From positions 1 through 49,235 of the forward strand of contig JAJDZI010000136.1 of NCBI GenBank assembly GCA_022824735.1: a stretch of 49,235 nt of DNA. The letters are read 5' to 3'. Shown in pieces: positions 15,094-31,358 of the stretch; the first letter of the stretch is position 1, and each line of letters opens with the position of its first letter. Both the position numbers and the translations under genes were made by a program. Under the pieces are notes generated by a model, which was given only the letters and a program-made list of their open reading frames with translations, was not told the origin of the DNA and made no database searches. The stretch comes from Nitrospirales bacterium (GTDB lineage: Bacteria; Nitrospirota; Nitrospiria; Nitrospirales; UBA8639).

Positions 15094-15294
15094 AACGTTG
15101 TACCTCCCCCAGCAAGTAATGGATAATTGATTTGTGCGAGCGAATAAAAAGCCAGAGCCTGGTATTACGCGAATTTACCGAGCATGTCAACATGAGTCCA
15201 CTGCCGGCAATCCAGTGCGACTCATACCTGGCCATCTCACACCGGGAATCCCATGCTTTGTCCTGGAGCGCGGGGGGCGGTAGAATCCAATTCA

Positions 15295-17082
15295 ATGGAA
15301 CCCTTCGACGTCGTAAAACAGTACCATGAGCAGACCAAACATGACTTCAACCGGTATGCCCGCGCGTTGGGATACATGGACTGGGCTAATCAGCCTGATC
15401 CCTTCCGGCGCTATGAAGGGGCCCCGCTCTACGCATTACCGCTGCTCGAAGCCAACGACAAACCCGTTTCTCCTCCTTACGAATCGCTCTTTTCTTCACC
15501 ACCAATCCCTGCCCAACCCCTGACCCTGAACAGTCTTTCCCGATTCTTCGAATACAGTCTCTCCATCACGGCGTGGAAAGAATATGGGGGGAATCGCTGG
15601 GCATTGCGCAGCAATCCGTCCAGCGGCAATTTGCATCCCACGGAAGGGTATCTGCTGATCCGGGAAACCGCTGAGCTTCCGTTGAAGCCGGGACTCTATC
15701 ACTATGCCCCCAAAGAACATGGTTTGGAGCACCGTTGGCACGGCTCGAATGAGATCATCGAAGCTCTCCTGCAACCTTTTCCCGCACAATCTTTTTTCGT
15801 GGGGCTGAGTTCGATCCATTGGCGGGAAGCGTGGAAGTATGGAGAACGCGCGTTTCGCTACTGCCAGCACGACGTCGGTCATGCGCTGGGCACGTTGCGG
15901 ATTGCGGGAGCCGTGCTCGGGTGGGAAGTCTTTCTTCTCGCCGGACTCAATGACCGGACAATCGGGACCCTGCTCGGCCTGGACCGGTTGCATGAATTCG
16001 ATCGTGCCGAACCCGAATTTCCCGAACTGCTGTGCGTGGTCTGTCCCATGCCAACGCTTCTACCTCCCCTACCCCCTCCTCACCCTTCGACTTCGCTCAG
16101 GGCAGGCAAAGGAGGGGAACAAGAAGCACCCCTGCCATTTACCGTTGATCAGGACCTAATCCGGCATTGGGAACACGGAGACTGGCGAGGCAAGGCCAAC
16201 CGATTGAGCCGGGATAATCCCGTTCCCTGGGAAATTATCGACGATGTGACCAAGGCGTCATGGAAAACCTCGACGGAATCATCGGAGCTTCCATGGTTTT
16301 CCTCCCCTGCCCCGATCCGGGAATTGGCTGAAACGGAACCGGCGTCTGTTCCCGATTCCCGTCCGGGCATGGTTTCCGCGCACCGGATCATCCATCAACG
16401 ACGAAGCGCGGTGGCGTTCGACGGGAACACGTCGATTTCCGCACAACAATTCTTCACGATGCTGGAGCGGGTCATGCCTCACGCGGATCGACCGGTCGCT
16501 CAACGGCCCATGCCGTGGGATTCGCTGCCCTGGCTCCCCACCATTCACTTGGCCCTGTTCGTGCATCGAGTCGACGGGCTCCTACCCGGCATGTACATGC
16601 TCCTGCGAAATGGCGACCCGGCGCTTAAGGGCGCCTTTCAACAAGCCATGCATGAGCAATTCGTCTGGACCGTTCCCAATCAGTGTCCGGCATCGCTTCC
16701 GCTCTATCTGTTGGAAGACGGAGACACCCAACGCATCGCCATGCAGTTGAGTTGCCATCAGGAAATCGCCGGCGACAGCGCCTTCTCATTGGGCATGATT
16801 GCGGAATTCGAGGCGTCTTTGGAGAAACATGGACCGTGGTTCTACAAGCGTCTGTTTTGGGAAACCGGACTCATCGGACAGGTGCTGTACCTCGAAGCGG
16901 AAGCGGCCGGTGTTCGTTCAACCGGTATCGGGTGTTTTTTCGACGACCCCGTGCATCGCGTGCTGGGGTGGCATCCCGACACGCGATTTCAATCCCTGTA
17001 TCACTTCACCGTCGGCGGCCCGGTCGAGGATCATCGCCTCACGACCCTGCCGCCCTATGGCGAACTGAGGCCGCTCCCTTGA
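15295..17082 (+). CDS. SagB/ThcOx-type dehydrogenase, two-lobed nitroreductase-family protein
   Basis: N-terminus MEPFDVVKQYHEQTKHDFNRYARALGYMDWANQPDPFRRYEG is the characteristic SagB-type dehydrogenase opening. The C-terminal half ends in the nitroreductase-like GIGCFFDD...YHFTVGGP. An upstream in-frame ATG at 15253 is also possible. Confidence 0.8.
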   Translation: MEPFDVVKQYHEQTKHDFNRYARALGYMDWANQPDPFRRYEGAPLYALPLLEANDKPVSPPYESLFSSPPIPAQPLTLNSLSRFFEYSLSITAWKEYGGNRWALRSNPSSGNLHPTEGYLLIRETAELPLKPGLYHYAPKEHGLEHRWHGSNEIIEALLQPFPAQSFFVGLSSIHWREAWKYGERAFRYCQHDVGHALGTLRIAGAVLGWEVFLLAGLNDRTIGTLLGLDRLHEFDRAEPEFPELLCVVCPMPTLLPPLPPPHPSTSLRAGKGGEQEAPLPFTVDQDLIRHWEHGDWRGKANRLSRDNPVPWEIIDDVTKASWKTSTESSELPWFSSPAPIRELAETEPASVPDSRPGMVSAHRIIHQRRSAVAFDGNTSISAQQFFTMLERVMPHADRPVAQRPMPWDSLPWLPTIHLALFVHRVDGLLPGMYMLLRNGDPALKGAFQQAMHEQFVWTVPNQCPASLPLYLLEDGDTQRIAMQLSCHQEIAGDSAFSLGMIAEFEASLEKHGPWFYKRLFWETGLIGQVLYLEAEAAGVRSTGIGCFFDDPVHRVLGWHPDTRFQSLYHFTVGGPVEDHRLTTLPPYGELRPLP

Positions 17083-17215
17083 AGTCTGCCCATGGAATAG
17101 GATAGGGTAATTGCCAGCCGCGGCGGCTTTTCCCATCGGTTTCGCGAGAACGAACGGCCGCCCTTCTCCGACACGGTAAGAACACAAGAATCGCCCCAAT
17201 ACAAAGGAGGACACC

Positions 17216-17305
17216 ATGAATCCACTCGACTCGATCCCCGGAACGATCACCGCCGGATTCGTGCTGACCGTCGTTCTGTATTTTGTGGTGAAAATGCTTG
17301 TCTAG
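17216..17305 (+). CDS. Possible 29-aa single-pass membrane peptide (MNPLDSIPGTITAGFVLTVVLYFVVKMLV)
   Basis: Absent from the ORF track because it is under 60 aa. Strong Shine-Dalgarno AAAGGAGGA 6 nt upstream of the ATG. Has a hydrophobic core and lies 46 nt upstream of the next membrane-protein gene. Confidence 0.3.
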   Translation: MNPLDSIPGTITAGFVLTVVLYFVVKMLV

Positions 17306-17351
17306 TTGTCTGCGAACGTTCTGACTTGAACTCAACCCAAAGAGGATAGAG

Positions 17352-17831
17352 ATGGAAACCTTATTGGCATGGGGACATTTTCTGGCAGGTATCACCTGGA
17401 TCGGTATTTTGTATTATTTCAATTTCATTCAAGTTCCCTTTCTGGGAAAAGTCACCCCGGAGACCAAGGCAGAGGCCTTTCAACACCTGGTCCCGAACGC
17501 GCTCTGGTGGTTCCGTTGGGGCGCCTTGGCCACGTGGTTGTTCGGAGCGGTTCTCCTGATGAACCAGGGCCGGTTCGGTTCGGCCTTCGCCCTGCAGGGC
17601 CAGGATGCCGTCATCGGGATGGGAGCGTGGCTGGGTACCATTATGCTCTTCAACGTCTGGGGCATTATCTGGCCCAACCAGAAAAAAGTACTGGGCATCA
17701 AGCAAGCTTCAGCGGATGAAAAGAAGCAGTCCGCCCGCCTGGCCTTGCTGGCGTCACGGACCAACACGATGCTGTCCATTCCCATGTTGTTCTTCATGGC
17801 CTCGTCCGGACACGCCTCCGGGCTGTTTTAA
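17352..17831 (+). CDS. Integral membrane protein, about 4 TM, similar to the N-terminal membrane domain of PuuD-type urate hydroxylases (family assignment tentative)
   Basis: 159 aa with four hydrophobic segments. The opening HFLAGITWIGILYYFNF resembles the HxxAGIAWIGxSFYF signature of the PuuD membrane domain. Confidence 0.55.
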   Translation: METLLAWGHFLAGITWIGILYYFNFIQVPFLGKVTPETKAEAFQHLVPNALWWFRWGALATWLFGAVLLMNQGRFGSAFALQGQDAVIGMGAWLGTIMLFNVWGIIWPNQKKVLGIKQASADEKKQSARLALLASRTNTMLSIPMLFFMASSGHASGLF

Positions 17832-17857
17832 ACAGATGGGGCATAGGAGCAATTGCC

Positions 17858-18691
17858 ATGATTTCTTCATGCTTTGACGTGATGCGTTCGCGTCTTCACC
17901 ACCTTCTCTTTTTCTTCCTTCTTGCGGCGTCGTGGGGTTTCGCGCCGGGCGCGTGGGCAAACGACACGGAAGGCTGGTTCGCCGGCGTCCGGTTCGGCCA
18001 TGAACTTGCCGAGGCGACTTACACCAAAAGCGTGCACTACAACGCCGGTGTGCTCCCCCCACCTCTGGACGATGGCAGTGTAATCGCGGACGAGGACAGC
18101 GCCAATGACGGATTCAACGCGTTCTCCGCAAACCTGGGCTATCGCGCGTTCCTGTCCGACCAGGTATATCTTTCCGGCGAAGTTGAAGGCACGGTCTACT
18201 CCAACGCGATCCAAGGCTTTTTTGAAGGAACGTACACGGGTCACGAAGAACCCATTCCCTCTCAACACATCTTCCCCGGAGCATGGGAAGTGAGCAAGAA
18301 CCACAGTCTCGGGTTCAACGCACGCCTGGGATACGTGCCCCGGGGATTTGCCTTCCTGGGCGAAGGGCGCTCGGTGTACCTGATTTCCGGAGTGAAATGG
18401 CTGGACGCGACTTCTGAAGTCGCCATTGACAACTTCGGGGTTGGTGCGCAGGCGATTCGCGGCGTGACCCGCAAAAGACGTGATGCAACGCCCTGGCTCA
18501 TCGGAGGCGGCCTGGAGTTCGGGAGCAGCAAAAATCGCTTTGACGTGCGCATCCAATATTCCAGTTGGAGCATCGATTATGCCAGCGGGGATGGGGCGAC
18601 GGAACAGACCGCCTATGTGCCAAACACGTTTGACGTTGACGAAGTCGGCATCTCAGTGGGATATACCAGATCGTTCAGCCTGGGCATGTAA
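17858..18691 (+). CDS. Outer-membrane beta-barrel protein (porin/OmpA-barrel-like)
   Basis: AGGAG 8 nt upstream of the ATG. Signal peptide ...LLFFFLLAASWGFAPGAWA/ND. Alternating aromatic/Gly-rich strand pattern (GYRAF, GFNARLGY, GGGLEFG, ISVGYTRSF). Confidence 0.65.
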   Translation: MISSCFDVMRSRLHHLLFFFLLAASWGFAPGAWANDTEGWFAGVRFGHELAEATYTKSVHYNAGVLPPPLDDGSVIADEDSANDGFNAFSANLGYRAFLSDQVYLSGEVEGTVYSNAIQGFFEGTYTGHEEPIPSQHIFPGAWEVSKNHSLGFNARLGYVPRGFAFLGEGRSVYLISGVKWLDATSEVAIDNFGVGAQAIRGVTRKRRDATPWLIGGGLEFGSSKNRFDVRIQYSSWSIDYASGDGATEQTAYVPNTFDVDEVGISVGYTRSFSLGM

Positions 18692-18734
18692 GTTCTTATA
18701 TTTCATTACATCATTTCTTACAAAAGAGGATCTT

Positions 18735-19163
18735 ATGAGCAAGAGTCTCAAGGGCACACAAAGTCACGACAATCTGAAAGCGGCGTTTGCCGGCGAATCC
18801 CAGGCGAATCGCCGGTACCTGTATTTTGCGCGCCGCGCGGATATCGAAGGGTATCCGGACGTCGGCGGATTGTTCCGCGACACCTCCGAAGCCGAAACCG
18901 GCCATGCCTTCGGCCACTTGGACTTCCTGAAGGAAGTCGGCGACCCCGCGACGGGCGAACCCATCGGGAACACCGAATCCAACCTCAAGGCAGCCATCGA
19001 AGGCGAAACGTACGAGTACACGCAAATGTACCCGGGCATGGCTAAAACCGCGCGGGAAGAAGGTTTTGAAGAATTGGCGGAATGGTTCGAGACCCTGGCG
19101 AAAGCGGAACGCTCCCACGCCAACCGTTTCACCAAAGGGCTGGAATCGTTAGGCAACGCGTAA
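18735..19163 (+). CDS. Rubrerythrin-family di-iron protein (ferritin-like domain only, no rubredoxin domain)
   Basis: 142 aa from the ATG at 18735 (the ORF-track entry 18480 is an upstream extension). Motifs: [49 protein letters not shown], which are the ExxH di-iron ligand pairs. Confidence 0.85.
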
Positions 19164-19187
19164 CGTGAGCGCGCGGCGCCTCCTTCG

Positions 19188-20462
19188 TTGAAAAGCATTC
19201 ACCTCATTTCCACTGACTGGACGCGCGACGATCTTGTTCGGGAGACGAACCGGATCTTCGACGTGTGCGACGGCTGTCGCCGGTGCTTCAACCTGTGTCC
19301 GTCCTTCAACACGCTGCTGGACCGGATCGACGAGTACGAGAGCGACGTCTCCCTGCTGACCGCCGCGGATTACGAACGGGTCGAGAAGGAATGTTATTAC
19401 TGCAAGCTCTGTTACAACCACTGCCCGTACACGCCGCCCCATGACTACCAGATTGATTTTCCGCGACTCATGGCCGCGTGGAAAAAGCAGCGGGTCAAGG
19501 AACAGGGAGCGTCCTGGCGTGATCGCCTGCTGATCAAAACGGACCTGATCGGCAAACTGGGAAGCCTGACGGCCTCGCTGACCAACCGGGTACTCTCGAC
19601 GCCGTGGGTCCGGAGCCTGTTAGAGGCAATCATCGGCCTGCACCGGGACCGGCGCGTGCTCGCCTTTTCCCGGGAAAACTTTCCCGCGTGGTGGCGCAAA
19701 CAGGGTCCGGCGCTGCAACCCGCGGTCCCCAAGCATAAGGTCGTCGTGTTTCCGAGTTGCCTGGTGAATTATCAGGCCACCGATATCGGAAAAGCCACGG
19801 TCCAGGTCCTCGTCAAGAATAACGTGGAGGTCGTCGTCCCCGAGGGCCAACGCTGTTGCAGTATGCCCTCCTTTGATCTCGGCGATACCGAAACCATGGC
19901 GCAGACCGCCACGTACCATTTGCGATTGTTTCTGCCGTACCTCCGGCAAGGGTATGACCTCGTCGTTCCCACTCCCAGTTGCAGTCTCATGTTCAAACGG
20001 GAATATCCGTACCTGGTGCCGACGCGAGACATGGCCTTGTTGGCCGAACGCACGTTCGACGTCTGTGAATACCTGATGCGGCTCAAAAAAGACGGGGCGT
20101 TGTCCACGGAGTTCAGGCAGACGTCGCAACGCATCGCATATCAGGTCCCCTGTCATTTGCGTGACCAGAACATCGGTTTTAAATCCAAGGAACTCATGGA
20201 ACTCACGGGTGCCCGGGTCGAAGTCATTGAAAAATGTTCCGGCCACGACGGTTCATGGAGCGCCAAGGTGGAATTTTTCGATCAGTCCATGAAGATCGCC
20301 GGGAAGGCCGTCCGCGCGGTTTCCGATTGCGAGCCCGACCTGGTGGCATCGGATTGCCCGCTTTCGGCGCTGCAACTCGATCAGGCGGGAGCAACGCCGT
20401 CGAAACACGGAACCCGGCATCCCATTCAAATCGTTCGCGACGCCTACGACCTCCCATCATGA
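19188..20462 (+). CDS. Fe-S oxidoreductase with 2x[4Fe-4S] ferredoxin motifs and two CCG domains (HdrD/GlpC/GlcF-like)
   Basis: TTG start. [12 protein letters not shown] and [13 protein letters not shown] cluster motifs. CCG-type cysteines: [29 protein letters not shown]. Confidence 0.8.
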
Positions 20463-21043
20463 ACCCGTTGACCCCATCAGATCTTCTTTCCCACGAGGAA
20501 TACGAAGCCCAACGCGCGACGTTTCGACGGGAGACGATCGCCCTCAAAAAACGACGCCGGATCGAGGTCGGCCCCCTGGTGACGCTGGTCTTTGAGAATC
20601 GACAAACGCTGCTGTTTCAGGTTCAGGAAATGATTCGCGCCGAACGCATTTTCGAGCCGTCCAAAATTCAGGATGAGCTTGACGTCTACAATGCCCTGCT
20701 TCCCCGAACGGGCGAACTCAGCGCCACCGTGATGATTGAAATTACAGCCCAGGAGCGCATCAAGGAAATTCTGGACTCTTTCCAGCGGTTCGACCGGCCG
20801 AATACCCTGGCGCTTACCGTCAAAGAGCAAGCCGTGTTTGCCGACTTCGAAGCCGGACACAGCAAGGAAGACAAAATCAGCGCGGTCCATTTTGTGCGGT
20901 TTATGGTTCCGCCGGCTTTTGTGAACGTGCTTGGCGAGGATGAGTCTCATGCCGGTATCCGGATTACCCATGAGAACTACAAGGCAGAGGCGAACGTCCC
21001 ACCCGCCATGCGGGAAGAGTGGCTGAAAGACCTGCGCGCCTGA
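20459..21043 (+). CDS. DUF3501-family protein
   Basis: 194 aa. The ATG overlaps the upstream stop (ATGA). [62 protein letters not shown] matches my recollection of DUF3501, a family usually adjacent to rubrerythrin and HdrD-like genes. Confidence 0.7.
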   Translation: MNPLTPSDLLSHEEYEAQRATFRRETIALKKRRRIEVGPLVTLVFENRQTLLFQVQEMIRAERIFEPSKIQDELDVYNALLPRTGELSATVMIEITAQERIKEILDSFQRFDRPNTLALTVKEQAVFADFEAGHSKEDKISAVHFVRFMVPPAFVNVLGEDESHAGIRITHENYKAEANVPPAMREEWLKDLRA

Positions 21044-21073
21044 ATGTTTTTCATATTTTTCCTTTGACGGAAA

Positions 21074-21102
21074 TTGACAACCGCCAAGGGGGTGGTTATT
21101 AT
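21074..21102 (+). promoter_or_regulatory. Putative sigma70-like promoter for erpA
   Basis: TTGACA (21074-21079), 17-nt spacer, TATTAT (21097-21102). Confidence 0.35.
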
Positions 21103-21187
21103 TCACGTGCAAGAGGAAACGACCCCGGATTTTCGGGAATCCGGAAAACACGAGACCTGTTCATTTCATATTTGATTGGAGGGATCC

Positions 21188-21511
21188 ATGGTTACCATTA
21201 CCCCAATTGCCGAAGAGAAAATCAAAGAATTGATCCACGATGAGGAAGAAGAAGTCGTCGGGTTGCGAATCTACGTGAAGGGCGGCGGTTGCAGCGGCTA
21301 CCAATACGGGATGTCCTTTGAATCCAAAATGGACGACGACGACACGGTGATTGAAAAAGGCGAGGTCAAAGTCATTGTGGATTCGCAAAGCGCCCCCATG
21401 CTGAGCGGCGCGGAAGTCGATTACGTCGACAGCCTGCAAGGCTCCGGGTTTGCAATCAAGAACCCGCAAGCGAAAAGCACGTGCGGTTGCGGCAGTTCCT
21501 TCAGTACCTGA
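21188..21511 (+). CDS. erpA: A-type iron-sulfur cluster carrier/insertion protein (ErpA/IscA/HesB family)
   Basis: GGAGGG Shine-Dalgarno. YVKGGGCSGYQYGMSFE and the C-terminal NPQAKSTCGCGSSF are close to the E. coli ErpA pattern. Confidence 0.85.
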   Translation: MVTITPIAEEKIKELIHDEEEEVVGLRIYVKGGGCSGYQYGMSFESKMDDDDTVIEKGEVKVIVDSQSAPMLSGAEVDYVDSLQGSGFAIKNPQAKSTCGCGSSFST

Positions 21512-21533
21512 TCGCAGCCTCTTCGAGTTCAAC

Positions 21534-21580
21534 AAGGCCAGGACTTCTGCCTCTCGGCGGAACTCCTGGCCTTTTTCTTA
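21534..21580 (+). terminator. Rho-independent terminator after erpA
   Basis: 10-bp stem AAGGCCAGGA (21534-21543) / TCCTGGCCTT (21564-21573), followed by TTTCTT. Confidence 0.6.
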
Positions 21581-21605
21581 GGATCCCGATTCCGTTCATT
21601 TGCGC

Positions 21606-22391
21606 ATGACACGATCGACCCTCACGAAACGCATAGAATTTTCCGCTTCGCACCGGTACTTCAAGGCCGAGTGGGACGAGGAGCGCAACAGACGGGTCTT
21701 CGGCCCCTGCTTCCGGGAGCATGGGCACAATTACCTGCTTGAAGTGACCCTCGGAGGGCGGGTCGATCCCATCACGGGCATGATCATCAATCTGTACGAC
21801 CTGAAGCACATCGTCACGAACGTGCTCGAAGAGTTCGACCACAAACACCTCAACTACGATATGCCCTATTTTGAACGGATCGTGCCCACCACTGAAAATC
21901 TGGCCCTGGTGCTATGGCGGAAGTTTTGTGAGCGCCCGGAGACCCGGGACATTGCATCGATACGGCTTTGCGAAGGAGAAGACCTGTGGGTCGAGCTCTT
22001 TCAGCCGAATAACCCTGCCTCGCAGGACAATGCGGAACCGGCCGAGGCCCTGCTGACTCGCCGATACGCCCTGACGGTGCGGCGAGATGCCGATACTTCC
22101 CACGTGGAAACGTGGCCCCTTTCCCTGAACGTCACGACTCAAGGCCCGATAGACCCCGTCACGGGTCGCGTCACGAATATCGCAGCATTGGATGAGCGGG
22201 TCCAAGGGCAAATCCTCAACAGCCTCGCGGACACGAATGTGTCGCAACTTCAGGAATTGGCCGGCCGGCCGGTTACCCTATCCACCTTGGCCAAAATCCT
22301 TTGGTCCAGGCTGCGCAACATTGCCGATGCCCGCCTCGCACGACTCCGGCTCACGGACCACCACGACCTGACCCTGGATTATTCTGAATAA
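21606..22391 (+). CDS. queD: 6-carboxytetrahydropterin / 6-pyruvoyl-tetrahydropterin synthase family protein, tandem double T-fold domain
   Basis: The N-terminal domain has FSASHRY, GPCFREHGHNYLLEV and ITGMIINLYDLK (Zn-His triad plus catalytic Cys). The C-terminal about 110 aa repeat the fold pattern (DPVTGRVTNIAALD) without the HGH motif. Confidence 0.75.
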   Translation: MTRSTLTKRIEFSASHRYFKAEWDEERNRRVFGPCFREHGHNYLLEVTLGGRVDPITGMIINLYDLKHIVTNVLEEFDHKHLNYDMPYFERIVPTTENLALVLWRKFCERPETRDIASIRLCEGEDLWVELFQPNNPASQDNAEPAEALLTRRYALTVRRDADTSHVETWPLSLNVTTQGPIDPVTGRVTNIAALDERVQGQILNSLADTNVSQLQELAGRPVTLSTLAKILWSRLRNIADARLARLRLTDHHDLTLDYSE

Positions 22392-22525
22392 GCCGGCGGG
22401 CCGTTGGTCGGTTGTCGTAGTGCGAATTCCCCGGCTTTCGCTGAATTGCCTCACTATTACAATCTAAGCACAAAATTTAAATAGCAAGGTTTGTTATTGC
22501 GAAACTCTGAATAAGGACTGTCGTC

Positions 22526-22738
22526 ATGAAACGTGGGGAAAGCGGCAGATATGAGGTAACAAACATCAGCGGTGAACACGTTCGCGCCTTTGTGCCAGCG
22601 CCGCTTCCGCCGAAACCCAATCTCGTTCTGGACGGCTCGCCGCAACAGATGCTCGAAGCGGCGGTGCTTGCCCTGGGCCGCCTCGACGGCGTAGCAACCC
22701 TCCTGCCGGATGAGACGCTTTTTCTGTATGCCCGAGGC
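22526..22738 (+). pseudogene. Fic-family protein fragment (N-terminal Fic_N region only)
   Basis: GRYEVTNISGEHVRAFVPAPLPPKPNLVLDGSPQQMLEAAVLALGRLDGVATLLPDETLFLY matches the conserved Fic N-terminal domain. It breaks off before the expected EAxxSSxIEG and HPFxxGNGR motifs. The ORF then runs on to 22915 in unrelated sequence. Confidence 0.6.
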
Positions 22739-22778
22739 GTCGTGAAATTAAGTGTCTTGTATATCCGGCCGTCAGGCA

Positions 22779-22859
22779 CACGATACCGAGTACATCCACC
22801 GCCACAGCAAGAACGGCTACGAGGTGGAGCACATCTGGGCCAACAAACCCGAACGCCAA
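22779..22859 (+). pseudogene. Short remnant of a DUF1524 / GmrSD-like nuclease gene
   Basis: TEYIHRHSKNGYEVEHIWANKPER in another frame resembles the YEVEHIWA..PER block of DUF262/DUF1524 proteins. Only about 27 codons are recognisable. Confidence 0.35.
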
Positions 22860-22948
22860 AGCCTGTCATCGAGATTTGGCATTGGAGAATGGTGTCCATG
22901 GCGGCCATATTGTAAATTGAATTGCACTATGCTAGGCTCGCAAAGCCG

Positions 22949-22984
22949 CATAAGGTGCCTTTACATAAGGTGCCTTTACATAAA
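22949..22984 (+). repeat. Tandem 15-nt repeat (CATAAGGTGCCTTTA x2 plus a partial third copy) directly upstream of the RiPP precursor gene
   Basis: Units at 22949-22963 and 22964-22978 are identical, and CATAAA follows. The AGGTGCCT core recurs a third time at 22997-23004, overlapping the Shine-Dalgarno of the precursor. Confidence 0.85.
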
Positions 22985-23005
22985 TTCTTGTAGGGGAGGT
23001 GCCTC

Positions 23006-23272
23006 ATGGTTTCTATGAAAGAAGCGCGGGACCGTCTGATTGAAAAAGCTTCATCGGACGATGCATTTCGGACTCTCTTGATCAACGATCCCAGAAAGGC
23101 CGTTGAAGAAGAATTTGGGGTGACGTTACCCGATAGCTTTTCCGTCACGGTGCATGAACAAAGTCCAACTGAAGCACATCTGGTTCTGCCACCGGCAGTA
23201 AAACTGGAGGAAAGGGATTTAAAGCTCGTTTCTGGTGGGTTACCCTGGTGTAGTAGTGGGGGTTGTTGGTAA
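23006..23272 (+). CDS. NHLP (nitrile-hydratase-like leader peptide) family RiPP precursor; predicted core LPWCSSGGCW
   Basis: 88 aa. The leader (DAFRTLLINDPRKAVEEEFGVTLPDSFSVTVHEQSPTEAHLVLPP) follows the NHLP pattern. A double-Gly site (LKLVSGG, 23234-23239) precedes a 10-residue Cys/Trp core (23240-23269). The dedicated NHLP exporter trio is encoded alongside. Confidence 0.85.
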   Translation: MVSMKEARDRLIEKASSDDAFRTLLINDPRKAVEEEFGVTLPDSFSVTVHEQSPTEAHLVLPPAVKLEERDLKLVSGGLPWCSSGGCW

Positions 23273-23289
23273 AGAAAAGAGGCGTTTAC

Positions 23290-23721
23290 ATGGATATCGA
23301 TCAGGCGATGACACAGGTTGCCTCACTGGACTTTACAATGCTGAAGCGAAAGCTTGAGGTCGCAGGAGGCTGGTCCGCCGATACCGTGGCGGAAGGTGAA
23401 CACCTGTACCGCAAATATCTTGCCCTCAAGATGGTATATCCGAAAAAGACGATAAGCCCGACTCAACTCATCGACGAGTTCTGGCATGCGCATATTCTCG
23501 ATACGAAAGCCTACACAACCGATTGTCAAAAGCTATTCGGGAGATACTTACATCACTACCCTTATGGCGGCAGACTGAGCGAGGACGTCCTCGATCATGC
23601 GCTTGGTGAAGCCCGAAAGGAAGAAACTCGCAAGTTGTTCCTGCGGCACTTCCATATTGATCTGCAATTCTCTCTCCCCGACAATCCACCTGACGGCGAC
23701 AGGCCCCAGTCGCAAGAATAA
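23290..23721 (+). CDS. Small His-rich protein, GRDP-like (DUF1399-type) motif; candidate RiPP tailoring or accessory protein
   Basis: 143 aa from the ATG at 23290, 18 nt after the precursor stop. EFWHAHILDTKAYTTDCQKLFGRYLHHYPYGG resembles the WHxHxL...Y..DC...G..LHH signature I associate with glycine-rich-domain-protein-like (PF07173) proteins. Confidence 0.55.
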   Translation: MDIDQAMTQVASLDFTMLKRKLEVAGGWSADTVAEGEHLYRKYLALKMVYPKKTISPTQLIDEFWHAHILDTKAYTTDCQKLFGRYLHHYPYGGRLSEDVLDHALGEARKEETRKLFLRHFHIDLQFSLPDNPPDGDRPQSQE

Positions 23722-23810
23722 CCGACTGGGACCTGAGCTGTGGACCGGCTTCCACGAATCTCGCCCTTGCCCTTCCCAATGCATCCATCCCCAAAGGCCG
23801 AGTTGCCGTC

Positions 23811-24914
23811 ATGACTGACCCAGACAGTCATTTTCACGTCGACTCGGAGCGTCAAACCGCAGAAATACATGATTGCGGGACGGTCTTGCGCAGCCTGCGT
23901 TCGCTTGTACCGGACGGACTCGTCGATAGTCTCGAATGGGAACGTCTCGCAGGTCGTGCAGATGGTCTCTCTGCATCGATTGTCGGCCTGGAATTTCGGC
24001 TTGGCGACCCCACGCCAAACGCCGATTTCCTGCTCGGCCTTGTGCCGGGAAGCTGGGCTGAACAGACCTGCATCCGTCGAGGGCAAGAGGCGCCACCTGA
24101 TTCTCCGGAAGCTTTTCTCGCCAACTATTTGGCTCAAATCCGGGATGCCGAATTTCCGGAGGCAGCCCTGATCGCGACAACCATACTCGAATACGATGTG
24201 GGACTTGTCCCCGGTGACGACCGGTGGCCTCCTCCCGGAGTGTTTCAAAAGCTCAAGAATCCCTTTTCACAGAATGTGGGCATTCGTGAGGCAGAGGTCG
24301 CCGCTCGCATAGCCTCCGCGATCAGTTGGGCCGTCGGGCGATCCGACGATGCACAAGAAAGCGCCGCCATTCGGAAAATGGTTGCCGCACTACCAGTGGA
24401 CAGCCAATTGACATGGATCGGCGCAATGCCTGGACGGGACCCCAGAATGATTCGACTGTTGTTCGATGTTCCTGACGCCGATGGGCTGATGGACGATCTG
24501 CAACGGATCGGATGGCCTGGACCGACTGAAATGGTCGCCTCAACTCTTGACGCCATCAACGGTCAGTTCGAGCGACTTGCGATTCAATTGGAGGTATCGG
24601 CGCAAGGCGTGTTGCCCAGACTGGGCCTTGAGGTTTACGTACTTCCTAAGCACCCGTACGGTTTCGCTGATTGGAGCAGGGCACCAAACCCTGGCTTATG
24701 GCGCCCAATTCTTTCCCGATTGGAGGACACCGGCTGGTGCTTGCCGCAGAAGGCGAGCTGTTTGCTGGCGTTCCCCGGACGAGAATACATCTTCGATAAT
24801 GGAATCTTCCTCGTACACAAAAACATCAATCACGTCAAAATTTCCATTGAAGCCAGTCAGGCGCGCGAGGCCAAGGCCTACGTCTTCATGAAGTTTCAAC
24901 CGGCCACTGCGTGA
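23811..24914 (+). CDS. Hypothetical 367-aa protein, no family recognised; candidate RiPP tailoring enzyme (possible five-fold alpha-beta-beta-alpha barrel)
   Basis: Intact ORF in the same operon orientation as the precursor. Five strand-pair-like segments are separated by amphipathic helices: VGLEFRLGD..DFLLGL, TILEYDVG..GVFQKL, LTWIGA..MIRLLFDV, LAIQLEV..LGLEVYV, GIFLVHK..HVKISIE..AKAYVFMKF. Confidence 0.6.
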   Translation: MTDPDSHFHVDSERQTAEIHDCGTVLRSLRSLVPDGLVDSLEWERLAGRADGLSASIVGLEFRLGDPTPNADFLLGLVPGSWAEQTCIRRGQEAPPDSPEAFLANYLAQIRDAEFPEAALIATTILEYDVGLVPGDDRWPPPGVFQKLKNPFSQNVGIREAEVAARIASAISWAVGRSDDAQESAAIRKMVAALPVDSQLTWIGAMPGRDPRMIRLLFDVPDADGLMDDLQRIGWPGPTEMVASTLDAINGQFERLAIQLEVSAQGVLPRLGLEVYVLPKHPYGFADWSRAPNPGLWRPILSRLEDTGWCLPQKASCLLAFPGREYIFDNGIFLVHKNINHVKISIEASQAREAKAYVFMKFQPATA

Positions 24915-24999
24915 GCGGGCAGGACGACACCCCACACCATACATTGCACCCGGCGTATGAGAAGGCAGTTGGTGCGCCCGCAGATGAGGATCGTTTCGC

Positions 25000-27936
25000 T
25001 CAGGTGGTCTGCCGAAGCATCAGGCGGCGGAACAAGCCTTCAGCCTCGAACAATTCATCGAATCCACCCTGTTGGATGACCTTGCCCCCATCCAGCACAT
25101 AGATTCGGTCCGCCTTGCGGATGGTAGAAAGCCGATGAGCAATAACAATTCGCGTGGCCGAGAGGTTTTCGATGCCGCGCATGACCCTGGCCTGGCTGTC
25201 GGTATCGAGCCAGTTGGTCGCCTCGTCAAGAAAGACGATTCGCGGGCGCCGGGCAAGAGCCGATGCAACTCGGATTCGTTGCGCTTGACCGCCCGAAAAA
25301 ATCGCGTCACTGGCGCCCACAAGCGTGTACATCTGCATAGGCATGGCCGTGATTTCGTCATCAACGGCAGCGAGATGGGCAGCACGCCAAGCGTCCTCTT
25401 CAGTCAAGTCACCCAACGATCCGGTGATATTACTCAGAATGTTCCCAGGCAACAACACCCCATCCTGCATCACCACGCCGATCTGTCGGCGAACGGCACG
25501 CTGGTTGAGGTGCTTGAGATTACGCCCATCATACTCAACAGCTCCGATCACGGGTTGTTCAAGCCCGAGCGCAAGCTGCAGCAACGTCGTCTTGCCGGCT
25601 CCGGACTCCCCCACGATGGCAACAAATTCACCGGGATTGACGTGGAGCGAGACGTCATCAAGAATCAGCGGAGAATATTGCGAATAGCGGAAGCTGACAT
25701 GGTCGAAATGGATCTCACCCCGGAGTTTGGAGGACGGGTTTCCCGCCGAAGGCGTTTCCGGAACGGCTTCCAGGATTGGCTGGATCTGTTTGTAATCCAG
25801 GATTGGCTGGATCTGTTCGTAACCGGGGATGATCATGGCCACCGCCTCGAAGGACTGTCCCAGCCTGGCAACGGCTTCGTAAAAGATCATCGAGGCTGCA
25901 AAGACAGCCAGAAAATCTCCAGTCTCGATGCCACCGGGACCGCGAGACACTGCCACCCCAATGATAATCCCTCCGGCCAGCAAAGGAATTGCCCCACTGG
26001 CAGCCACCAGATGATCGCTCAGCCGACCGGTTTCAAGTTCGGCATTTTTCTGCTCACAATACCTGCGCGACCAAGCCGCGGTGGCAGCCTTTTCGGCTCG
26101 GCTGAGCCGCAGTTTGTGTATCCCGTTGATGAAAGCCAGCAAGCCGCCTGTCAGCCGACGCGAAGCCTCATGCAACCGTCGCTGTGGATTCTTCTGGCGC
26201 AGGCCGAACGTGACCGCGGCGGCGGCACCACACACACCAATGACGAAGCTGACCCAGCCCAAAACCAGATCGTAGAGAAAAATCAACGAAAATGCAGGCA
26301 ACAAGAACAGGGTCGACAGGGCGGCATTGGCCACCATACCGGCAATCAAGTCGCGCAGGGCTTGGAACGTCATGACCCGCACGGCAAGGTCGCCGGCCGT
26401 GAAGCGTCTGAAGAATGCCAGTGGCAGCCCGAGAAGACGGTCCCAGAGCGCAGCACCTGCCGACGTGACTACCCGGCCTTCGATACGCATCAACGCCGTG
26501 CCCTGCAGCATCTGAAACAGCGAACCGATCAGCGCTGCTGCAATCATGGCCGTGATCGTGGAAATGAGGGACGCAAGAGAACCACTCGGTATGATCTCGC
26601 CCGTCACCAATCCCACCGCCACGGCCGGGGCAAGCGTCAGGAACCCGCCAAGCAATCCGACCGTGACAAAGCGACACATGCTGCCAACCAAGCCGCGCGC
26701 TGCAAAACGAGTCAGACTTTTCAGCCCGATCTGACCGTCCGGAAACGGTCGGTAAAACATCCACGCTTGACCGTCCAAGGTTTGCGCTGTGGTTGCATTG
26801 GCGGGCTCAGAATGTCCCGTAACGGGATCGATGATTCGGTAGCGGGTCGCACCGGGAACCAACGCCACGGCGCTTCGGTCGCTTTTGCGAAAGCCCAACA
26901 TGGCGCCACTGTCGCCAATCCACCACCGCTCTTCCGGAATCAATTTGACCGAACGGCAACGTACGCCGGAGGCATGCAGAATCGCCTGCAAGGAAGAAAC
27001 AACACTGCTATCCTCACCCGCCGGCGCGGTAGGCATTCGGAACGTCAATCCTTCATGACGACCGACCACCTCAAGGGCCGCCTCCAGGGCCGACGCCTGA
27101 CTCCGATCGGTCGCATCTGCGCTGGCCTGCAGCGAACGGTACAGGGCCGTGCGTGCTTGCGCCTCGTCACGTTCGCGGAAATCGGCAAGGGCGACGTCCT
27201 GATTGGCCACGTCGACCAGCAAAAGCAGGCGATTGGTATGCTCAGCGCGAAGAAGCAGGTGATGGTATTGAGCAAGAGACGGGAACAACAAAGATTTTTG
27301 GTGCAGCGTTTCCGAGTCGGCACCGGCAACGTGCCCTGGGCTCGTGACAGCCAACCAGCTCTCCGGTGTCAAGGGCAACCATCCTGTCCCGTCCTGGCCC
27401 AGCTCTTCGGTATCAAGGAAGGTCGCGGACAGGCCTTGGGTGGCGGCCCATACCACGCCATGCCGGCTTGCAAGAATGCTCCCGGCAGCAAGGTTTTGAG
27501 TCGCTCCGGGGTGAAGCATGGCGTTGGGATCGCGATGCAACGTGATATCACGGTGAACGGCCGCCGTCATGTCTATGATCCATTGCTCCACTTGATTGAT
27601 CAATGCTTCGGCAGGAACGGCTTTCTGCAACGCCTCAAGCGGAAGAACGCGAACGGTCGAGTTGGGTAGGCCTTTCGCCATGACAATCAGTGAATCCGCC
27701 GTATTCCCGGCAATGCCGAAAACGAGACGACCCGGACCGGCACGAAGCATGTGCTTCAGGCTTGAATCCGGCAAGCCCTCCCGGGAATCTGCGATAAAGA
27801 CGTCCAGTGCGCCGGATTCAACAAACCATGCCGTTCCCGGGTCGTCGAGCCGGATGGGCCGGTTGTTGCCGCCGGTGAACAACGTGCCAAGCGTGCTGAT
27901 GACCTGCGACATATTGCTGGGCGGTTGGGTGGACAT
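25000..27936 (-). CDS. NHLP-type bacteriocin export ABC transporter, permease/ATPase subunit with N-terminal cyclic-nucleotide-binding-like domain
   Basis: 978 aa. N-terminal cNMP-like beta-roll (AWFVESGALDVFIADS). A 6-TM exporter domain. NBD with GESGAGKTT (Walker A), FSGGQAQR (signature) and IVFLDEAT (Walker B). The architecture matches the second ABC component of NHLP/Nif11 export systems. Confidence 0.85.
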   Translation of the reverse strand: MSTQPPSNMSQVISTLGTLFTGGNNRPIRLDDPGTAWFVESGALDVFIADSREGLPDSSLKHMLRAGPGRLVFGIAGNTADSLIVMAKGLPNSTVRVLPLEALQKAVPAEALINQVEQWIIDMTAAVHRDITLHRDPNAMLHPGATQNLAAGSILASRHGVVWAATQGLSATFLDTEELGQDGTGWLPLTPESWLAVTSPGHVAGADSETLHQKSLLFPSLAQYHHLLLRAEHTNRLLLLVDVANQDVALADFRERDEAQARTALYRSLQASADATDRSQASALEAALEVVGRHEGLTFRMPTAPAGEDSSVVSSLQAILHASGVRCRSVKLIPEERWWIGDSGAMLGFRKSDRSAVALVPGATRYRIIDPVTGHSEPANATTAQTLDGQAWMFYRPFPDGQIGLKSLTRFAARGLVGSMCRFVTVGLLGGFLTLAPAVAVGLVTGEIIPSGSLASLISTITAMIAAALIGSLFQMLQGTALMRIEGRVVTSAGAALWDRLLGLPLAFFRRFTAGDLAVRVMTFQALRDLIAGMVANAALSTLFLLPAFSLIFLYDLVLGWVSFVIGVCGAAAAVTFGLRQKNPQRRLHEASRRLTGGLLAFINGIHKLRLSRAEKAATAAWSRRYCEQKNAELETGRLSDHLVAASGAIPLLAGGIIIGVAVSRGPGGIETGDFLAVFAASMIFYEAVARLGQSFEAVAMIIPGYEQIQPILDYKQIQPILEAVPETPSAGNPSSKLRGEIHFDHVSFRYSQYSPLILDDVSLHVNPGEFVAIVGESGAGKTTLLQLALGLEQPVIGAVEYDGRNLKHLNQRAVRRQIGVVMQDGVLLPGNILSNITGSLGDLTEEDAWRAAHLAAVDDEITAMPMQMYTLVGASDAIFSGGQAQRIRVASALARRPRIVFLDEATNWLDTDSQARVMRGIENLSATRIVIAHRLSTIRKADRIYVLDGGKVIQQGGFDELFEAEGLFRRLMLRQTT
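25770..25823 (-). repeat. 27-nt in-frame tandem duplication inside the ABC transporter gene
   Basis: Units 25770-25796 and 25797-25823 differ at 2 positions. They encode ...EQIQPILDYKQIQPILE... in the TMD-NBD linker. Confidence 0.9.
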
Positions 27937-27960
27937 GGGCTCCTTCGCCTTGCCGTGTGG

Positions 27961-30186
27961 TTACAAATCAGCCACGTGAACCAGACGGTGATACATCCCA
28001 CCGTCGTCCGCAAACAATTCCTCATGTGTGCCGCGCTGTATTTCCCGGCCACGGTCCAGAACGATGATCTGGTCGCAGTCACGGATGGTGCTGAGACGAT
28101 GCGCGACAATGATGCTCGTACACCCGCGTCGCCTGACCGCATCATCGACGCGTTGCTCGCTCAGCACGTCCAAGGCGCTGGTTGCCTCGTCGAGCAGAAG
28201 CACGGACGGGTCCCGGACCAAGGCGCGGGCAATTTCGAGGCGCTGTCGCTCTCCTCCGCTGAAGTTTCGTCCGTCCTGTTCAACCGGCGAATCGTATCCT
28301 CCCGGACGCGACATGACGACGTCGTGCATGAGGGCGTCCTGTGCGGCACTGACAAGTTGCGGTCTGGCAATTGTCGGATCCCAGAGGGTCACATTATCAC
28401 GAACCGTGCCTTCGAAGAGGCTGATTCGCTGATCGACCATGGAAACTGAGCCCGCCAGAATTTGCCGAGGGATCACGTTGACCGGCGCGCCATCAATCAG
28501 AATTTCGCCGGACCAAGGCGCGTACATTCCGCTTAAGAGGAGTAGCAAGGTTGATTTTCCTGACCCGGATGTTCCAATCACGGCGACTCGTTGACCGACG
28601 TCAACCGTCAGGCTGACCCCGTTGATGAGCGGCGGGGCATTGCGCTGGTAGCCGAAGACGACGTCACGCATTTCAATGCGCCCTTTCAGACGCAGCCGGC
28701 CACGGAACTTTGCCAGCGAGCCCGAGATTGACTTGTGATCCTCGATGACCATCGGATCCTCAGATGCCGACAGGACGTCATCGAGTCGTTGAAGGTCAGC
28801 TTCCATTGTCTGGAACAAATCGGCGAACAGGACAAGCCGGCCAACCGGGCGCAGAAAGTTTCCGGCAATGACGTAAAAGCCCATCAACTGACCAAGCGTC
28901 ATCTCCCCGGACATGGCGTGCCAACCACCAAAACCCAGAACGGCCGCGCCGCCGATAGCCAGCGCGAGGTTCGGCAACGAGGACGTGACGTGTCCCAATT
29001 CCGAGAAACGCTGGCGGGCGAGAAATTCACGGGCCTGATAACCGGTCCAGCGAGCGAAGAACTCGTCTTCGTGGCCAGTTGCCTTGAGCGATCTGATGTT
29101 TCTTAAACCAAACATCGCCGTGCCGTTCAGGAGCCCCTGCTCATGCTTCATCTGCCGGTTCTCGTCGGTCCTGCGTACGGAAATGAACTTCATTAATCCG
29201 GCTGAAGCCACACCAATGCCCGCCACGGCCAGGGCCAGGGCCGGGGCAAAGGCGACCATTAATCCCAGGAAGAGCACGCCCATGACCAATTCGACTGTGA
29301 TCCCCACCACTTGTATCGAGCCAACCGTCGCAACCTGATCGATCAGACGAGCCCGCTGAATCAGGTCGCCCGGGTAGCGGTAACAAAAGTATTCTATGGG
29401 TAGCCGGAACAGACGCGTGAGAAAGTGGTCGGAGTGAATAATCGAAAGACGCACGGCGAGCCGGCGCAGACACCGTCGATGCATCCACGTTAGAACATAG
29501 ACAAAGAGAGCGGCAATAAGGGCAGCAGCGACCAGGGAGGGGGCCCAGCCGACTTCGCCACCGCCTAGTACGTGGTCGATGAAGATAATCAGCAGCAAGG
29601 GCAGAACGAGTCCCGACAAAGCCAAAAAAAATCCGCTCAGGGCGGCAAAACCGAGTGACTGCAGGTCATGACTCAGCCACGGCCAGAACCTCCGCAAGAC
29701 TCCTGGCCGTGTGCCGCCGGTGCGGAACTCGGCACCTGGCTGCAACGACAGGACAACGCCGGTAAAGTCGCGATCGAAGGTGTCGGCGCTGACGGTCCGC
29801 CGACCAATTGCCGGGTCATTCAGATAAAAACAATCATTGCCCACCCCTTCAAGAACCACGAAGTGGCTGAAACTCCAAAACAGGATAAGGGGAAGCGGCA
29901 TACGCGAAAGGTCTCTCGGCTCCTTGCGCCATCCTTCAACTTCCAAACCATACGATCTCGCCGCGCGGACAAGGTCTGCCGCGTTGCAACCATCTCGCCC
30001 AACGGCGCAGGCCTCGCGCAGTTCCTCAAGCGAAGCATAGCGCCCAAAATAGGCAAGGACGCTGCACAGGCAAGCGGCGGCGCATTCGGTAGCCTGGACT
30101 TGTAAAAACAGTGGCGTGCGCAATCGTGGGCGGAAGAGCATGCGCAACCATTCGCTGAGTCTTGATACGAAAATAGCCAACGACAC
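27961..30186 (-). CDS. NHLP-type bacteriocin export ABC transporter with N-terminal C39 double-glycine peptidase domain
   Basis: 741 aa. C39 motif LQVQATECAAACLCSVLAYFGRY (catalytic Cys). Exporter TMD. NBD with GTSGSGKST, FSGGERQR and VLLLDEATS. Confidence 0.9.
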   Translation of the reverse strand: MSLAIFVSRLSEWLRMLFRPRLRTPLFLQVQATECAAACLCSVLAYFGRYASLEELREACAVGRDGCNAADLVRAARSYGLEVEGWRKEPRDLSRMPLPLILFWSFSHFVVLEGVGNDCFYLNDPAIGRRTVSADTFDRDFTGVVLSLQPGAEFRTGGTRPGVLRRFWPWLSHDLQSLGFAALSGFFLALSGLVLPLLLIIFIDHVLGGGEVGWAPSLVAAALIAALFVYVLTWMHRRCLRRLAVRLSIIHSDHFLTRLFRLPIEYFCYRYPGDLIQRARLIDQVATVGSIQVVGITVELVMGVLFLGLMVAFAPALALAVAGIGVASAGLMKFISVRRTDENRQMKHEQGLLNGTAMFGLRNIRSLKATGHEDEFFARWTGYQAREFLARQRFSELGHVTSSLPNLALAIGGAAVLGFGGWHAMSGEMTLGQLMGFYVIAGNFLRPVGRLVLFADLFQTMEADLQRLDDVLSASEDPMVIEDHKSISGSLAKFRGRLRLKGRIEMRDVVFGYQRNAPPLINGVSLTVDVGQRVAVIGTSGSGKSTLLLLLSGMYAPWSGEILIDGAPVNVIPRQILAGSVSMVDQRISLFEGTVRDNVTLWDPTIARPQLVSAAQDALMHDVVMSRPGGYDSPVEQDGRNFSGGERQRLEIARALVRDPSVLLLDEATSALDVLSEQRVDDAVRRRGCTSIIVAHRLSTIRDCDQIIVLDRGREIQRGTHEELFADDGGMYHRLVHVADL

Positions 30187-30194
30187 CCCAATTT

Positions 30195-30219
30195 GTCATT
30201 CCGCGCGAAGCGAGGAATC
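30195..30219. repeat. REP-like element GTCATTCCGCGCGAAGCGAGGAATC between the HlyD and ABC genes
   Basis: Imperfect palindrome (ATTCC..GGAAT). Shares the TGTCATTCC box with the element at 13648. Confidence 0.4.
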
Positions 30220-30251
30220 TCTTCCTAGTCCGGTTCTGCTTTCCGTCGACA

Positions 30252-31148
30252 TCAGCTCGCGTCTTCTTTGAATAGCATACGTAACAGGGAGATTGGCGGC
30301 CTGATAAACCAAGCATGGCAATGGGTGCCATTCGGGATGGAAAGTCCTGGAACTTCTTGCAGTGGTGCACGTACGAAGTGGCTGCGGGACGCGGCGACAA
30401 AACCGTGCTCAGAGAGCCACGGCGGCACCGCGACAGGTTGTGGCGATACGGCTGCAACTTCGGCTCCCAGCCAGTCGGTATCGCTCCGTCCTGGCACGAC
30501 CGCAATTCGCGCACGCATGCCGGGCGTGATGACGTCTGCGCTTTCAGGCGGCACAAAGGCCAACGCCTCCAAACGATGATCCGAGCCGGTTCGAATTCGG
30601 CCAACCACCGACCCGGCCTCGACTACCTGTCCCGGCACCAGCGACAGAGTCGCGACCTCGCCGGATTCAGGACTGGTCAGCACCGCGCTCGTTTCCAGCA
30701 GGGCTTCCACTGCGAGCAACTCCGCGCGAGCGACGGCAAGCCCGCCCTTGTCAGGGTTCGCGGCAATGCCTGGCGTCTGCTCCAGCAACGCGATTCGTGC
30801 CCGTGCCACCCGTGCCCGATGTATCAGTTGCGTGGGGTTGATCCTTGCGATCCGCTGTTCGTGTTCGACCCGTTCGCCGTTACGGACCAATACTTCGACA
30901 ACGGTACCGGATTCCGGTGAGATGATTGCATGGCGCTGACCAGGCATTGCAAGGATGCAGGTCGCTGCGACTTTCCGCTCGATGCTGCCCAAAATCACCC
31001 AAGCCGCGACGGACAGCAAGGCGATTGCCAAGGCGCAAAGAATGATCCATTCTCGCGGCGCAGTCACTCGAAGCAGGGAATCAAGAGGTTCCGCCTTCCC
31101 CCTAAGGGTCATGGCCTTCTCTCGAAACAGGCGGTTCTTAAACAGCAC
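30252..31148 (-). CDS. NHLP bacteriocin system secretion protein (HlyD-family membrane fusion protein)
   Basis: GTG start preceded by AGGGGA. N-terminus LFREKAMTLRGKAEPLDSLLRVTAPREW followed by a TM helix, then coiled-coil and beta-barrel segments typical of HlyD-type adaptors. First gene of the exporter operon. Confidence 0.85.
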   Translation of the reverse strand: MLFKNRLFREKAMTLRGKAEPLDSLLRVTAPREWIILCALAIALLSVAAWVILGSIERKVAATCILAMPGQRHAIISPESGTVVEVLVRNGERVEHEQRIARINPTQLIHRARVARARIALLEQTPGIAANPDKGGLAVARAELLAVEALLETSAVLTSPESGEVATLSLVPGQVVEAGSVVGRIRTGSDHRLEALAFVPPESADVITPGMRARIAVVPGRSDTDWLGAEVAAVSPQPVAVPPWLSEHGFVAASRSHFVRAPLQEVPGLSIPNGTHCHAWFIRPPISLLRMLFKEDAS

Positions 31149-31358
31149 TGCTACTGTCCCCTACAGATCCGGTTGTCTCTCCCAGCGGGAAACAACCTGC
31201 AAAAAGAAGCAAGGGATTCGCCCATGGACTCATTTCCGCTTCCACCAACCCGGAAGAACGGCATCGAACAACGGGCCTCTCATTGAGGGGCTGAAGTCTA
31301 GCATACGCAGTTCCAATATCCAAGCGCAGGGACCCGTTACTCTCGGTACAACAAACTC

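Follow-up and report, generated by a model that had tools for sequence, protein, structure and literature searches.

Peptide prenyltransferases of the MppC/NctPC type, which have the alpha-beta-beta-alpha (ABBA) fold, form a family whose first members were characterized only in 2024-2025. In a lanthipeptide cluster of Moorena producens, the soluble ABBA prenyltransferase MppC adds a geranyl group to indole C5 of Trp82 in the core ACWRWSG; its activity requires the attached Nif11-type leader, with leader contacts at Trp336/Phe340, and the supplement to the same study lists 9 MppC-like sequences that co-localize with NHLPs (PMC12715784). A review describes NctPC as a fusion of an ABBA prenyltransferase with an MstE-like class II cyclase, which attaches geranylgeranyl to Trp and cyclizes it (PMC13290415, citing Hubrich et al. 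2024). PalQ/ComQ are trans-isoprenyl diphosphate synthase-like Trp prenyltransferases; PalX, an NHLP-type precursor with the short core DNVRRFFW, is prenylated on its conserved C-terminal Trp, and the PalQ reaction is enhanced by the NHLP domain (PMC10853753). Here, these systems are compared with a 367-aa protein of a Nitrospirales bacterium (assembly GCA_022824735.1), encoded at 23811..24914 on the forward strand of contig JAJDZI010000136.1; the whole stretch of DNA analyzed, 49,235 nucleotides, is referred to as the window. The protein is probably a soluble, MppC-like peptide prenyltransferase of the ABBA fold that prenylates Trp of the product of an adjacent gene, the precursor of a ribosomally synthesized and posttranslationally modified peptide (RiPP).

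The open reading frame (ORF) is intact (ATG start, 367 aa, zero internal stops), and its start codon is supported because the N terminus is common to homologues at 68 to 75% identity. The protein looks “unknown,” as it was called in an initial annotation made from the letters of the sequence, because Pfam, NCBIfam, and PDB sequence and profile searches miss the family. Specifically, no Pfam or NCBIfam family was matched at E ≤ 1, including the DMATS-type and Orf2/CloQ-type Pfam families and the NCBIfam cyanobactin prenyltransferase models, and PDB searches with either the single protein or a 53-sequence profile returned nothing meaningful. By these comparisons, the protein falls outside the DMATS and Orf2 sequence families.

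The structure was modeled with AlphaFold2 (AF2) from a 53-sequence alignment of homologues, at a mean predicted local distance difference test score (pLDDT) of 91.9 and a predicted template modeling score (pTM) of 0.91. The model is a ten-stranded barrel in which five hairpins are separated by helix pairs. The strands assigned by DSSP pair as 57-63/71-77, 121-128/143-149, 199-205/214-220, 255-263/266-276, and 332-346/353-364, with two helices after each of the first four hairpins, in five strand-strand-helix-helix repeats. The five-fold strand-pair/helix periodicity read into the sequence by the initial annotation is therefore real: the ten model strands correspond, one to one, to the ten segments it had listed (VGLEFRLGD/DFLLGL, TILEYDVG/GVFQKL, LTWIGA/MIRLLFDV, LAIQLEV/PRLGLEVYVLP, and HVKISIE/AKAYVFMKF).

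Comparison of the model with the PDB using Foldseek gave 31 matches at E ≤ 0.001. Ranks 1 to 38 are occupied exclusively by ABBA (PT-barrel) prenyltransferases (probability, 0.96 to 1.00; best E, 2.8e-6; sequence identity, 8 to 15%), and no other fold scores. The matches are AnaPT, AmbP1/AmbP3, EpzP, IptA, CdpNPT, 5-DMATS, and CloQ, together with NphB/Orf2, PriB, NotF, FamD1, DMATS1, KgpF, and FgaPT2. The guess that the protein is a PT barrel was thus borne out by the AlphaFold and Foldseek check, and, on the strength of the model, the ABBA fold is almost certain. IptA, 5-DMATS, PriB, AnaPT, and FgaPT2 are the best structural matches and share with the 367-aa protein a similar size and the ten-stranded, five-repeat barrel; however, there is no detectable sequence similarity to them, and they act on free amino acids or small molecules rather than on peptides that bear a leader.

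A word-indexed search with the protein found 59 relatives, none of them annotated, and a full profile search reached 3,803 representative clusters (defined at 50% identity) at E ≤ 0.001, 716 of them at E ≤ 1e-30. Genomes were scanned for relatives with a 16-sequence alignment; the named relatives were found in metagenome-assembled genomes of Nitrospirales (the closest, at 68% identity), Arenicellales, Paracoccaceae/Boseongicola, and Gammaproteobacteria. Across the family, the conserved positions are mainly charged and aromatic strand residues, often at i/i+2 spacing: E61, R63, D72, E127, Y128, D129, R209, R212, R215, R270, E274, K314, H341, K343, K355, and Y357. The basic and Tyr residues among them (R63, R209, R212, R215, R270, K314, H341, K343, K355, and Y357) lie on or near strands, and the pattern is the one expected if such residues lined a barrel lumen in which a diphosphate and a cation are bound. 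The likeness of individual strands to an xRxKxYxxP pattern, also proposed in the initial annotation, holds in part; the motifs of the family are actually GFEFRL, LEYD, GAMPGRxPRxIRL, PRLGLExY, INHxKI, and AKAY.

The comparison with MppC was made through an orthologue. A search with the precursor MppE led to an 87%-identical precursor in M. producens, and its locus was fetched; the genes are, in order, LanM, two arginase-family genes, the precursor, a 375-aa gene whose product has no Pfam match, an amine-oxidase/cyclase gene, and a Trp halogenase. Because this order matches that of the mpp cluster as published (LanM, two arginases, precursor, prenyltransferase, terpene synthase, halogenase; PMC11791876), the 375-aa gene is taken to be the MppC orthologue. 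Alignment of the 367-aa protein to the orthologue with hhalign gave a probability of 99.8% and an E value of 1.8e-28 over 315 columns, and BLASTP gave 25% identity at an E value of 1e-18; as judged from these alignments, the protein is a distant homologue of the MppC orthologue. The two are of similar length (367 and 375 aa), would share the ABBA fold, and have in common a conserved Glu/Asp/Arg/Lys/His/Tyr set consisting of E61, D72, E127, D129, R209, R215, E274, Y276, K314, H341, K343, K355, and Y357 (numbering of the 367-aa protein).

These shared residues bear on the idea that the protein is an ABBA scaffold without a transferase role, for example, one that binds or chaperones the precursor or an isoprenoid, or one that catalyzes a different reaction. 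Sequence identity to any characterized enzyme is low and activity is predicted, as such a role would allow, but the invariant charged and aromatic strand residues (E61/R63, D72, E127/D129, R209/R215, E274, H341/K343, and K355/Y357), shared with the MppC orthologue, are the pattern expected of an active site, and the terpene cyclases and polyprenyl synthase that co-occur with the family (see below) call for an isoprenoid-attaching enzyme. We regard a noncatalytic role, or another reaction, as very improbable.

The prenyltransferase gene is part of a RiPP cluster with the following features; the last line marks the end of the synteny with L021, one of the related loci described below.

23006..23272, forward strand: NHLP-leader RiPP precursor of 88 aa, the presumed substrate (TIGR03793 leader_NHLP, E 5.1e-19, above the cutoff)
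23290..23721, forward strand: 143-aa all-helical protein, PF27765 (UCP032817-like, distantly GRDP-like; weak PF07173 match, precomputed PF27765 assignment)
23811..24914, forward strand: predicted 367-aa ABBA (PT-barrel) prenyltransferase, MppC-like RiPP prenyltransferase family (AF2, Foldseek, hhalign, conserved residues)
25000..27936, reverse strand: NHLP bacteriocin export ABC transporter, permease/ATPase subunit (TIGR03797, E 9.4e-209)
27961..30186, reverse strand: NHLP-family export ABC transporter with an N-terminal C39 peptidase domain (TIGR03796, E 9.7e-261, above the cutoff)
30252..31148, reverse strand: HlyD-type NHLP bacteriocin secretion adaptor (TIGR03794, E 1.1e-29)
31227..31228, no strand: end of synteny with L021 (blastn, L021 gene list, tblastn)

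The leader of the precursor (residues 1 to 78) ends in VSGG and is followed by the core LPWCSSGGCW, encoded at 23240..23269; the C terminus thus reads LKLVSGG/LPWCSSGGCW, and the statement in the initial annotation that the core holds two Trp residues is correct. Presumably, the C39-carrying exporter (27961..30186) cuts behind the double glycine and exports the product. The window was found to contain no LanM, cyclodehydratase, radical SAM enzyme, prenyl diphosphate synthase, or cyclase. The arrangement recalls that of mpp in that the prenyltransferase gene adjoins a gene for a precursor that has a Gly-Gly site, a leader that is long and structured, and a short core containing Trp, and a Cys-Trp dipeptide occurs in both cores (ACWRWSG for MppC and LPWCSSGGCW here). 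The differences are that the leader is of the Nif11 type there and of the NHLP type here, that LanM, arginase, and halogenase belong to the mpp cluster whereas the present cluster has none of them, that a PF27765 partner protein is present here, and that the host is a Nitrospirales bacterium rather than a cyanobacterium.

To place the locus among its relatives, 23 related loci (L numbers), some of which are duplicates of one another, were read. NHLP precursors stand beside the prenyltransferase in all 23, most of which also have the NHLP exporter. In 22 of the 23, the cores are short and have Trp or Tyr at or close to the C terminus, as follows.

L001/L007 and L021: GGCWSY
L022: GGCWSN
L008 and L009: GGCWA
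L010-12, L013, and L017: WAPTSSSY, WAPTDDSY, WAPTSDSY
L014-16: IAPTKDSY, IAPTSDGW, FAPTNDSY, IGDIDTW
L003/4: HHEGDW, HHGPSESDGW, CGGSGSNW
L005: LFGIGPGGSWG, VFSGSGNPSW, YPNQQHWPNW
L019/20/24: at least ten precursors, nearly all ending in CW, CWS, or CWV
L023: FGQMPGEWI, SGCHGECIWVS
L002 (the exception): Tyr/His-containing cores without Trp

Alignment of the core DNA sets GG-LPWCSS-GGCW of the window against GG-GGCWSY of the relatives; the window core therefore looks extended, in a nearly palindromic W-C-SSGG-C-W arrangement whose two Cys residues might form a disulfide.

The constant company of precursors also bears on the best structural matches, since AnaPT, AmbP1, EpzP, IptA, CloQ, and NphB are small-molecule enzymes and might suggest that the 367-aa protein is a small-molecule aromatic prenyltransferase (of the indole, phenazine, or naphthalene type) that merely adjoins RiPP genes. 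The presence of NHLP precursors in every related locus and of the exporter in most of them argues against this, as does the homology to the peptide enzyme MppC; furthermore, no small-molecule pathway genes lie between precursor and exporter. A small-molecule substrate is accordingly given very little weight, and prenyl transfer to the neighboring precursor peptide, as suggested by homology and gene context, is highly probable.

Isoprenoid enzymes adjoin members of the family and, because of this, independently support a role in prenyl transfer. L002 encodes a polyprenyl synthase (PF00348), and a cyclase-like protein of 313 to 346 aa, with a DxDDT motif and weak SQHop_cyclase_C matches, recurs in L001/7, L002, L008, L009, L021, L023, and L024. 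A six-sequence profile of this protein matches solved class II terpene cyclases in the PDB with the DxDDT motif aligned, namely, drimenol synthase 9mhs (E 2.7e-8), the monodomain squalene-hopene-type cyclases 8pak/8paj (E 1e-5 and 2.5e-4), and squalene-hopene cyclase (E 2.8e-4). Two family members show unusual architectures: P0096 is a cyclase-prenyltransferase fusion, in which an N terminus resembling the C-terminal end of the cyclase-like proteins precedes the prenyltransferase domain, and P0190 (679 aa) has tandem double prenyltransferase domains. NctPC, as portrayed in the review, is similar in that relatives at 50 to 70% identity have a separate cyclase-like gene in their clusters and P0096 is itself a fusion; it differs in that the 367-aa enzyme is stand-alone and no cyclase lies in the 49-kb window, the comparison being one with a description of NctPC.

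In the subfamily represented by L003, L004, and L005, the prenyltransferase gene and the end of an FAD-linked oxidase gene share 4 bases; the oxidase matches PF01565 and, weakly, a cytokinin-dehydrogenase-type binding domain. In P0059, such an oxidase is fused to the prenyltransferase. Cytokinin dehydrogenases act on N-prenyl groups, and for this reason the oxidase may be a prenyl-modifying step.

The cyclase of the relatives was found nowhere in the window by tblastn, and conjugation genes occupy its position. By blastn, positions 13865..31227 of the window are syntenic with L021 at 78 to 84% nucleotide identity, and the similarity stops at 31227; the HlyD adaptor, just inside this limit, is 82% identical to its counterpart in L001. 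In L021, HlyD is followed directly by a 313-aa class II terpene cyclase-like gene and then by thioredoxin and AhpC genes. In the window, the stretch from 31369 to the end holds an OmpA-family gene and the F-type conjugation genes TraE, TraK, TrbI/TraB, TraC, TraU, TraH, and TraG, the last with a lysozyme domain; no tRNA gene is near the breakpoint. This arrangement suggests the insertion of a conjugative element within the cluster or at its border. The cyclase has either been moved to a place outside the window or been lost; in the latter case, the prenyl chain on the product would be linear.

Taken together, the evidence points to the following route, in which catalysis, dependence on the leader, the use of Mg2+, the acceptor residue and atom, and the length of the donor are inferred. 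The enzyme would bind the NHLP precursor, whose gene lies 540 bp upstream, in its full-length form and probably via the structured leader. By analogy to MppC and other ABBA enzymes, the conserved Arg, Lys, His, and Tyr residues would hold a prenyl diphosphate inside the ten-stranded barrel, Mg2+ would probably be held by the conserved acidic residues, and the donor would be ionized to an allylic cation. The prenyl group would then be moved to a Trp indole in LPWCSSGGCW, the likeliest acceptor being the C-terminal Trp of GGCW, after which the C39 peptidase domain would cut behind Gly-Gly and the ABC/HlyD system would export a small lipidated peptide. A long donor (C15 to C20) is suggested because relatives at 50 to 70% identity adjoin the class II terpene cyclase-like gene.

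Trp as the acceptor, a natural guess in the initial annotation, is supported by the homology to the orthologue of MppC, a peptide Trp C5-geranyltransferase (PMC12715784), by NHLP cores that end in or near Trp or Tyr in nearly all of the loci, and by the isoprenoid enzymes that relatives adjoin. On these grounds Trp is the likely acceptor. That it is Trp88 in particular stands at about even chances: this residue is the likeliest because GGCW is the sole core element shared with the closest relatives and because GGCWA has a single Trp, and Trp81 could be a second site.

Several points weigh against this assignment. TM-scores against the solved ABBA enzymes are moderate (0.4 to 0.54, at a root mean square deviation of ∼7 Å), and the identity to the one characterized relative compared, by way of its orthologue, is only 25%. 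The segment IHQRQNPQQWPSYLKWQASLLKRGY of the MppC orthologue, which precedes the last two strands, is a gap in the 367-aa protein, so that an insertion of ∼18 residues with Trp336/Phe340 is missing and leader recognition, if any, must work differently; the published numbering, 336/340, does not fit the orthologue directly, probably owing to a tag or another start codon. The inward orientation of the conserved polar side chains is deduced from the i/i+2 spacing on the strands, and catalysis by the 367-aa protein, as by its NHLP-associated relatives, is a prediction. The window contains neither a prenyl diphosphate synthase nor a cyclase. The acceptor is not uniform across the family, given that the L002 cores lack Trp and that many cores end in Tyr. 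Finally, the conserved Cys beside the Trp could itself be the acceptor.

The last point amounts to a distinct proposal, that the protein is an ABBA peptide prenyltransferase that modifies the Cys thiol of Cys-Trp (S-prenylation) or another nucleophile. In the closest subfamily, every locus has a Cys directly or two residues before a near-C-terminal Trp. More distant members, however, adjoin Cys-less cores that end in Trp or Tyr (WAPTSSSY, IAPTSDGW, and HHEGDW), the two characterized relatives modify Trp (PMC12715784 and, as described in the review, PMC13290415), and the Cys-Trp motif tracks the PF27765 protein, not the prenyltransferase. S-prenylation or another nonindole acceptor is thus unlikely, and Trp prenylation is retained as the favored function.

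Two other types of peptide prenyltransferases were considered and rejected. PalQ/ComQ follow the same substrate logic, an NHLP precursor with a C-terminal Trp, but PalQ is all-helical and isoprenoid-synthase-related, with aspartate-rich motifs, whereas the model here is a beta-barrel; a regular-expression scan of the 367-aa protein found no (N/D)DxxD motif of isoprenoid-synthase-type prenyltransferases, and there is no polyprenyl_synt Pfam match. The cyanobactin enzymes PagF/KgpF/DciF have the ABBA fold and peptide substrates, and KgpF and DciF appear at Foldseek ranks 35 and 40, respectively. Their fold scores are nevertheless much weaker than those of the indole prenyltransferases, no sequence-family match exists, and they act on leaderless macrocycles; the cluster here lacks cyanobactin proteases.

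Between the precursor and the prenyltransferase lies the gene for the 143-aa PF27765 protein, which has 91 homologues with invariant W65, H66, H68, Y75, D78, C79, H88, and H89, in WHxH, DC, and HH motifs. The AF2 model (pLDDT, 87) consists of six helices and has no fold relative in the PDB (best E, 4.4), and a literature search on the bacterial PF27765 family found nothing. Among the loci read, PF27765 is present exactly where the cores carry Cys-Trp (Cys-Ile-Trp in L023) and absent elsewhere; the gene occurs in the window and in L001, L008, L009, L019, L020, L021, L022, L023, and L024. In Chondromyces, a PF27765 protein without a prenyltransferase adjoins a methyltransferase and a TauD-family oxygenase. 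The 143-aa protein is a candidate second maturase or leader-binding partner, which might modify the Cys-Trp motif in a metal-dependent manner or bind the leader.

In L019, L020, and L024 (metagenome ERZ21830300), the precursor arrays are interleaved with two PF27765 genes and two to three prenyltransferase paralogues, and they also hold a HupE/UreJ-like membrane protein and a squalene-hopene-cyclase-like gene.

A broader and more doubtful possibility, offered tentatively, is that the cluster makes a new subclass of very small (4 to 10 residues) isoprenoid-peptide hybrids in sponge-associated Nitrospirales and Proteobacteria. PF27765 would then be a new metal-dependent maturase acting on Cys-Trp (for example, by cross-linking or oxidation) together with the prenyltransferase, and most relatives would add a stand-alone class II terpene cyclase.

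The prenyltransferase is a new member of a recently described kind, for which the MppC study had already noted co-localization with NHLPs. The family of MppC/NctPC-type enzymes is large (∼3,800 clusters at 50% identity, none of them in Pfam or NCBIfam), and the present locus extends it to NHLP precursors whose cores are extremely short, from uncultured bacteria that are probably associated with sponges. Peptide prenylation (lipidation) changes membrane behavior and bioactivity, and peptide engineering seeks enzymes able to place prenyl groups at defined positions of leader-bearing peptides. The cluster should be easy to reconstitute heterologously because it is compact, with a precursor, one small protein, the prenyltransferase, and the exporter, and it offers a convenient entry point to the role of the PF27765 partner.

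Other features of the loci were recorded as well. In L001/L007, from a Nitrospirales relative, a glycosyltransferase family 25 gene (6227..7015) lies directly upstream of the precursor gene; tblastn found it absent from the window. Positions 22398..23015 of the window, between a PTPS gene and the precursor, have no counterpart in the syntenic L021 and include a 129-aa ORF (22526..22915), which matches Fic_N weakly and may be the remnant of a gene. Further upstream, a type I polyketide synthase of 3,443 aa is encoded at 3306..13637 on the forward strand, with the domain order KS-AT-DH-methyltransferase-ER-KR-ACP, a second KS, and a CurL-like C-terminal domain; this stretch has a G+C content of 63 to 66%, compared with 54 to 60% in the remaining window.

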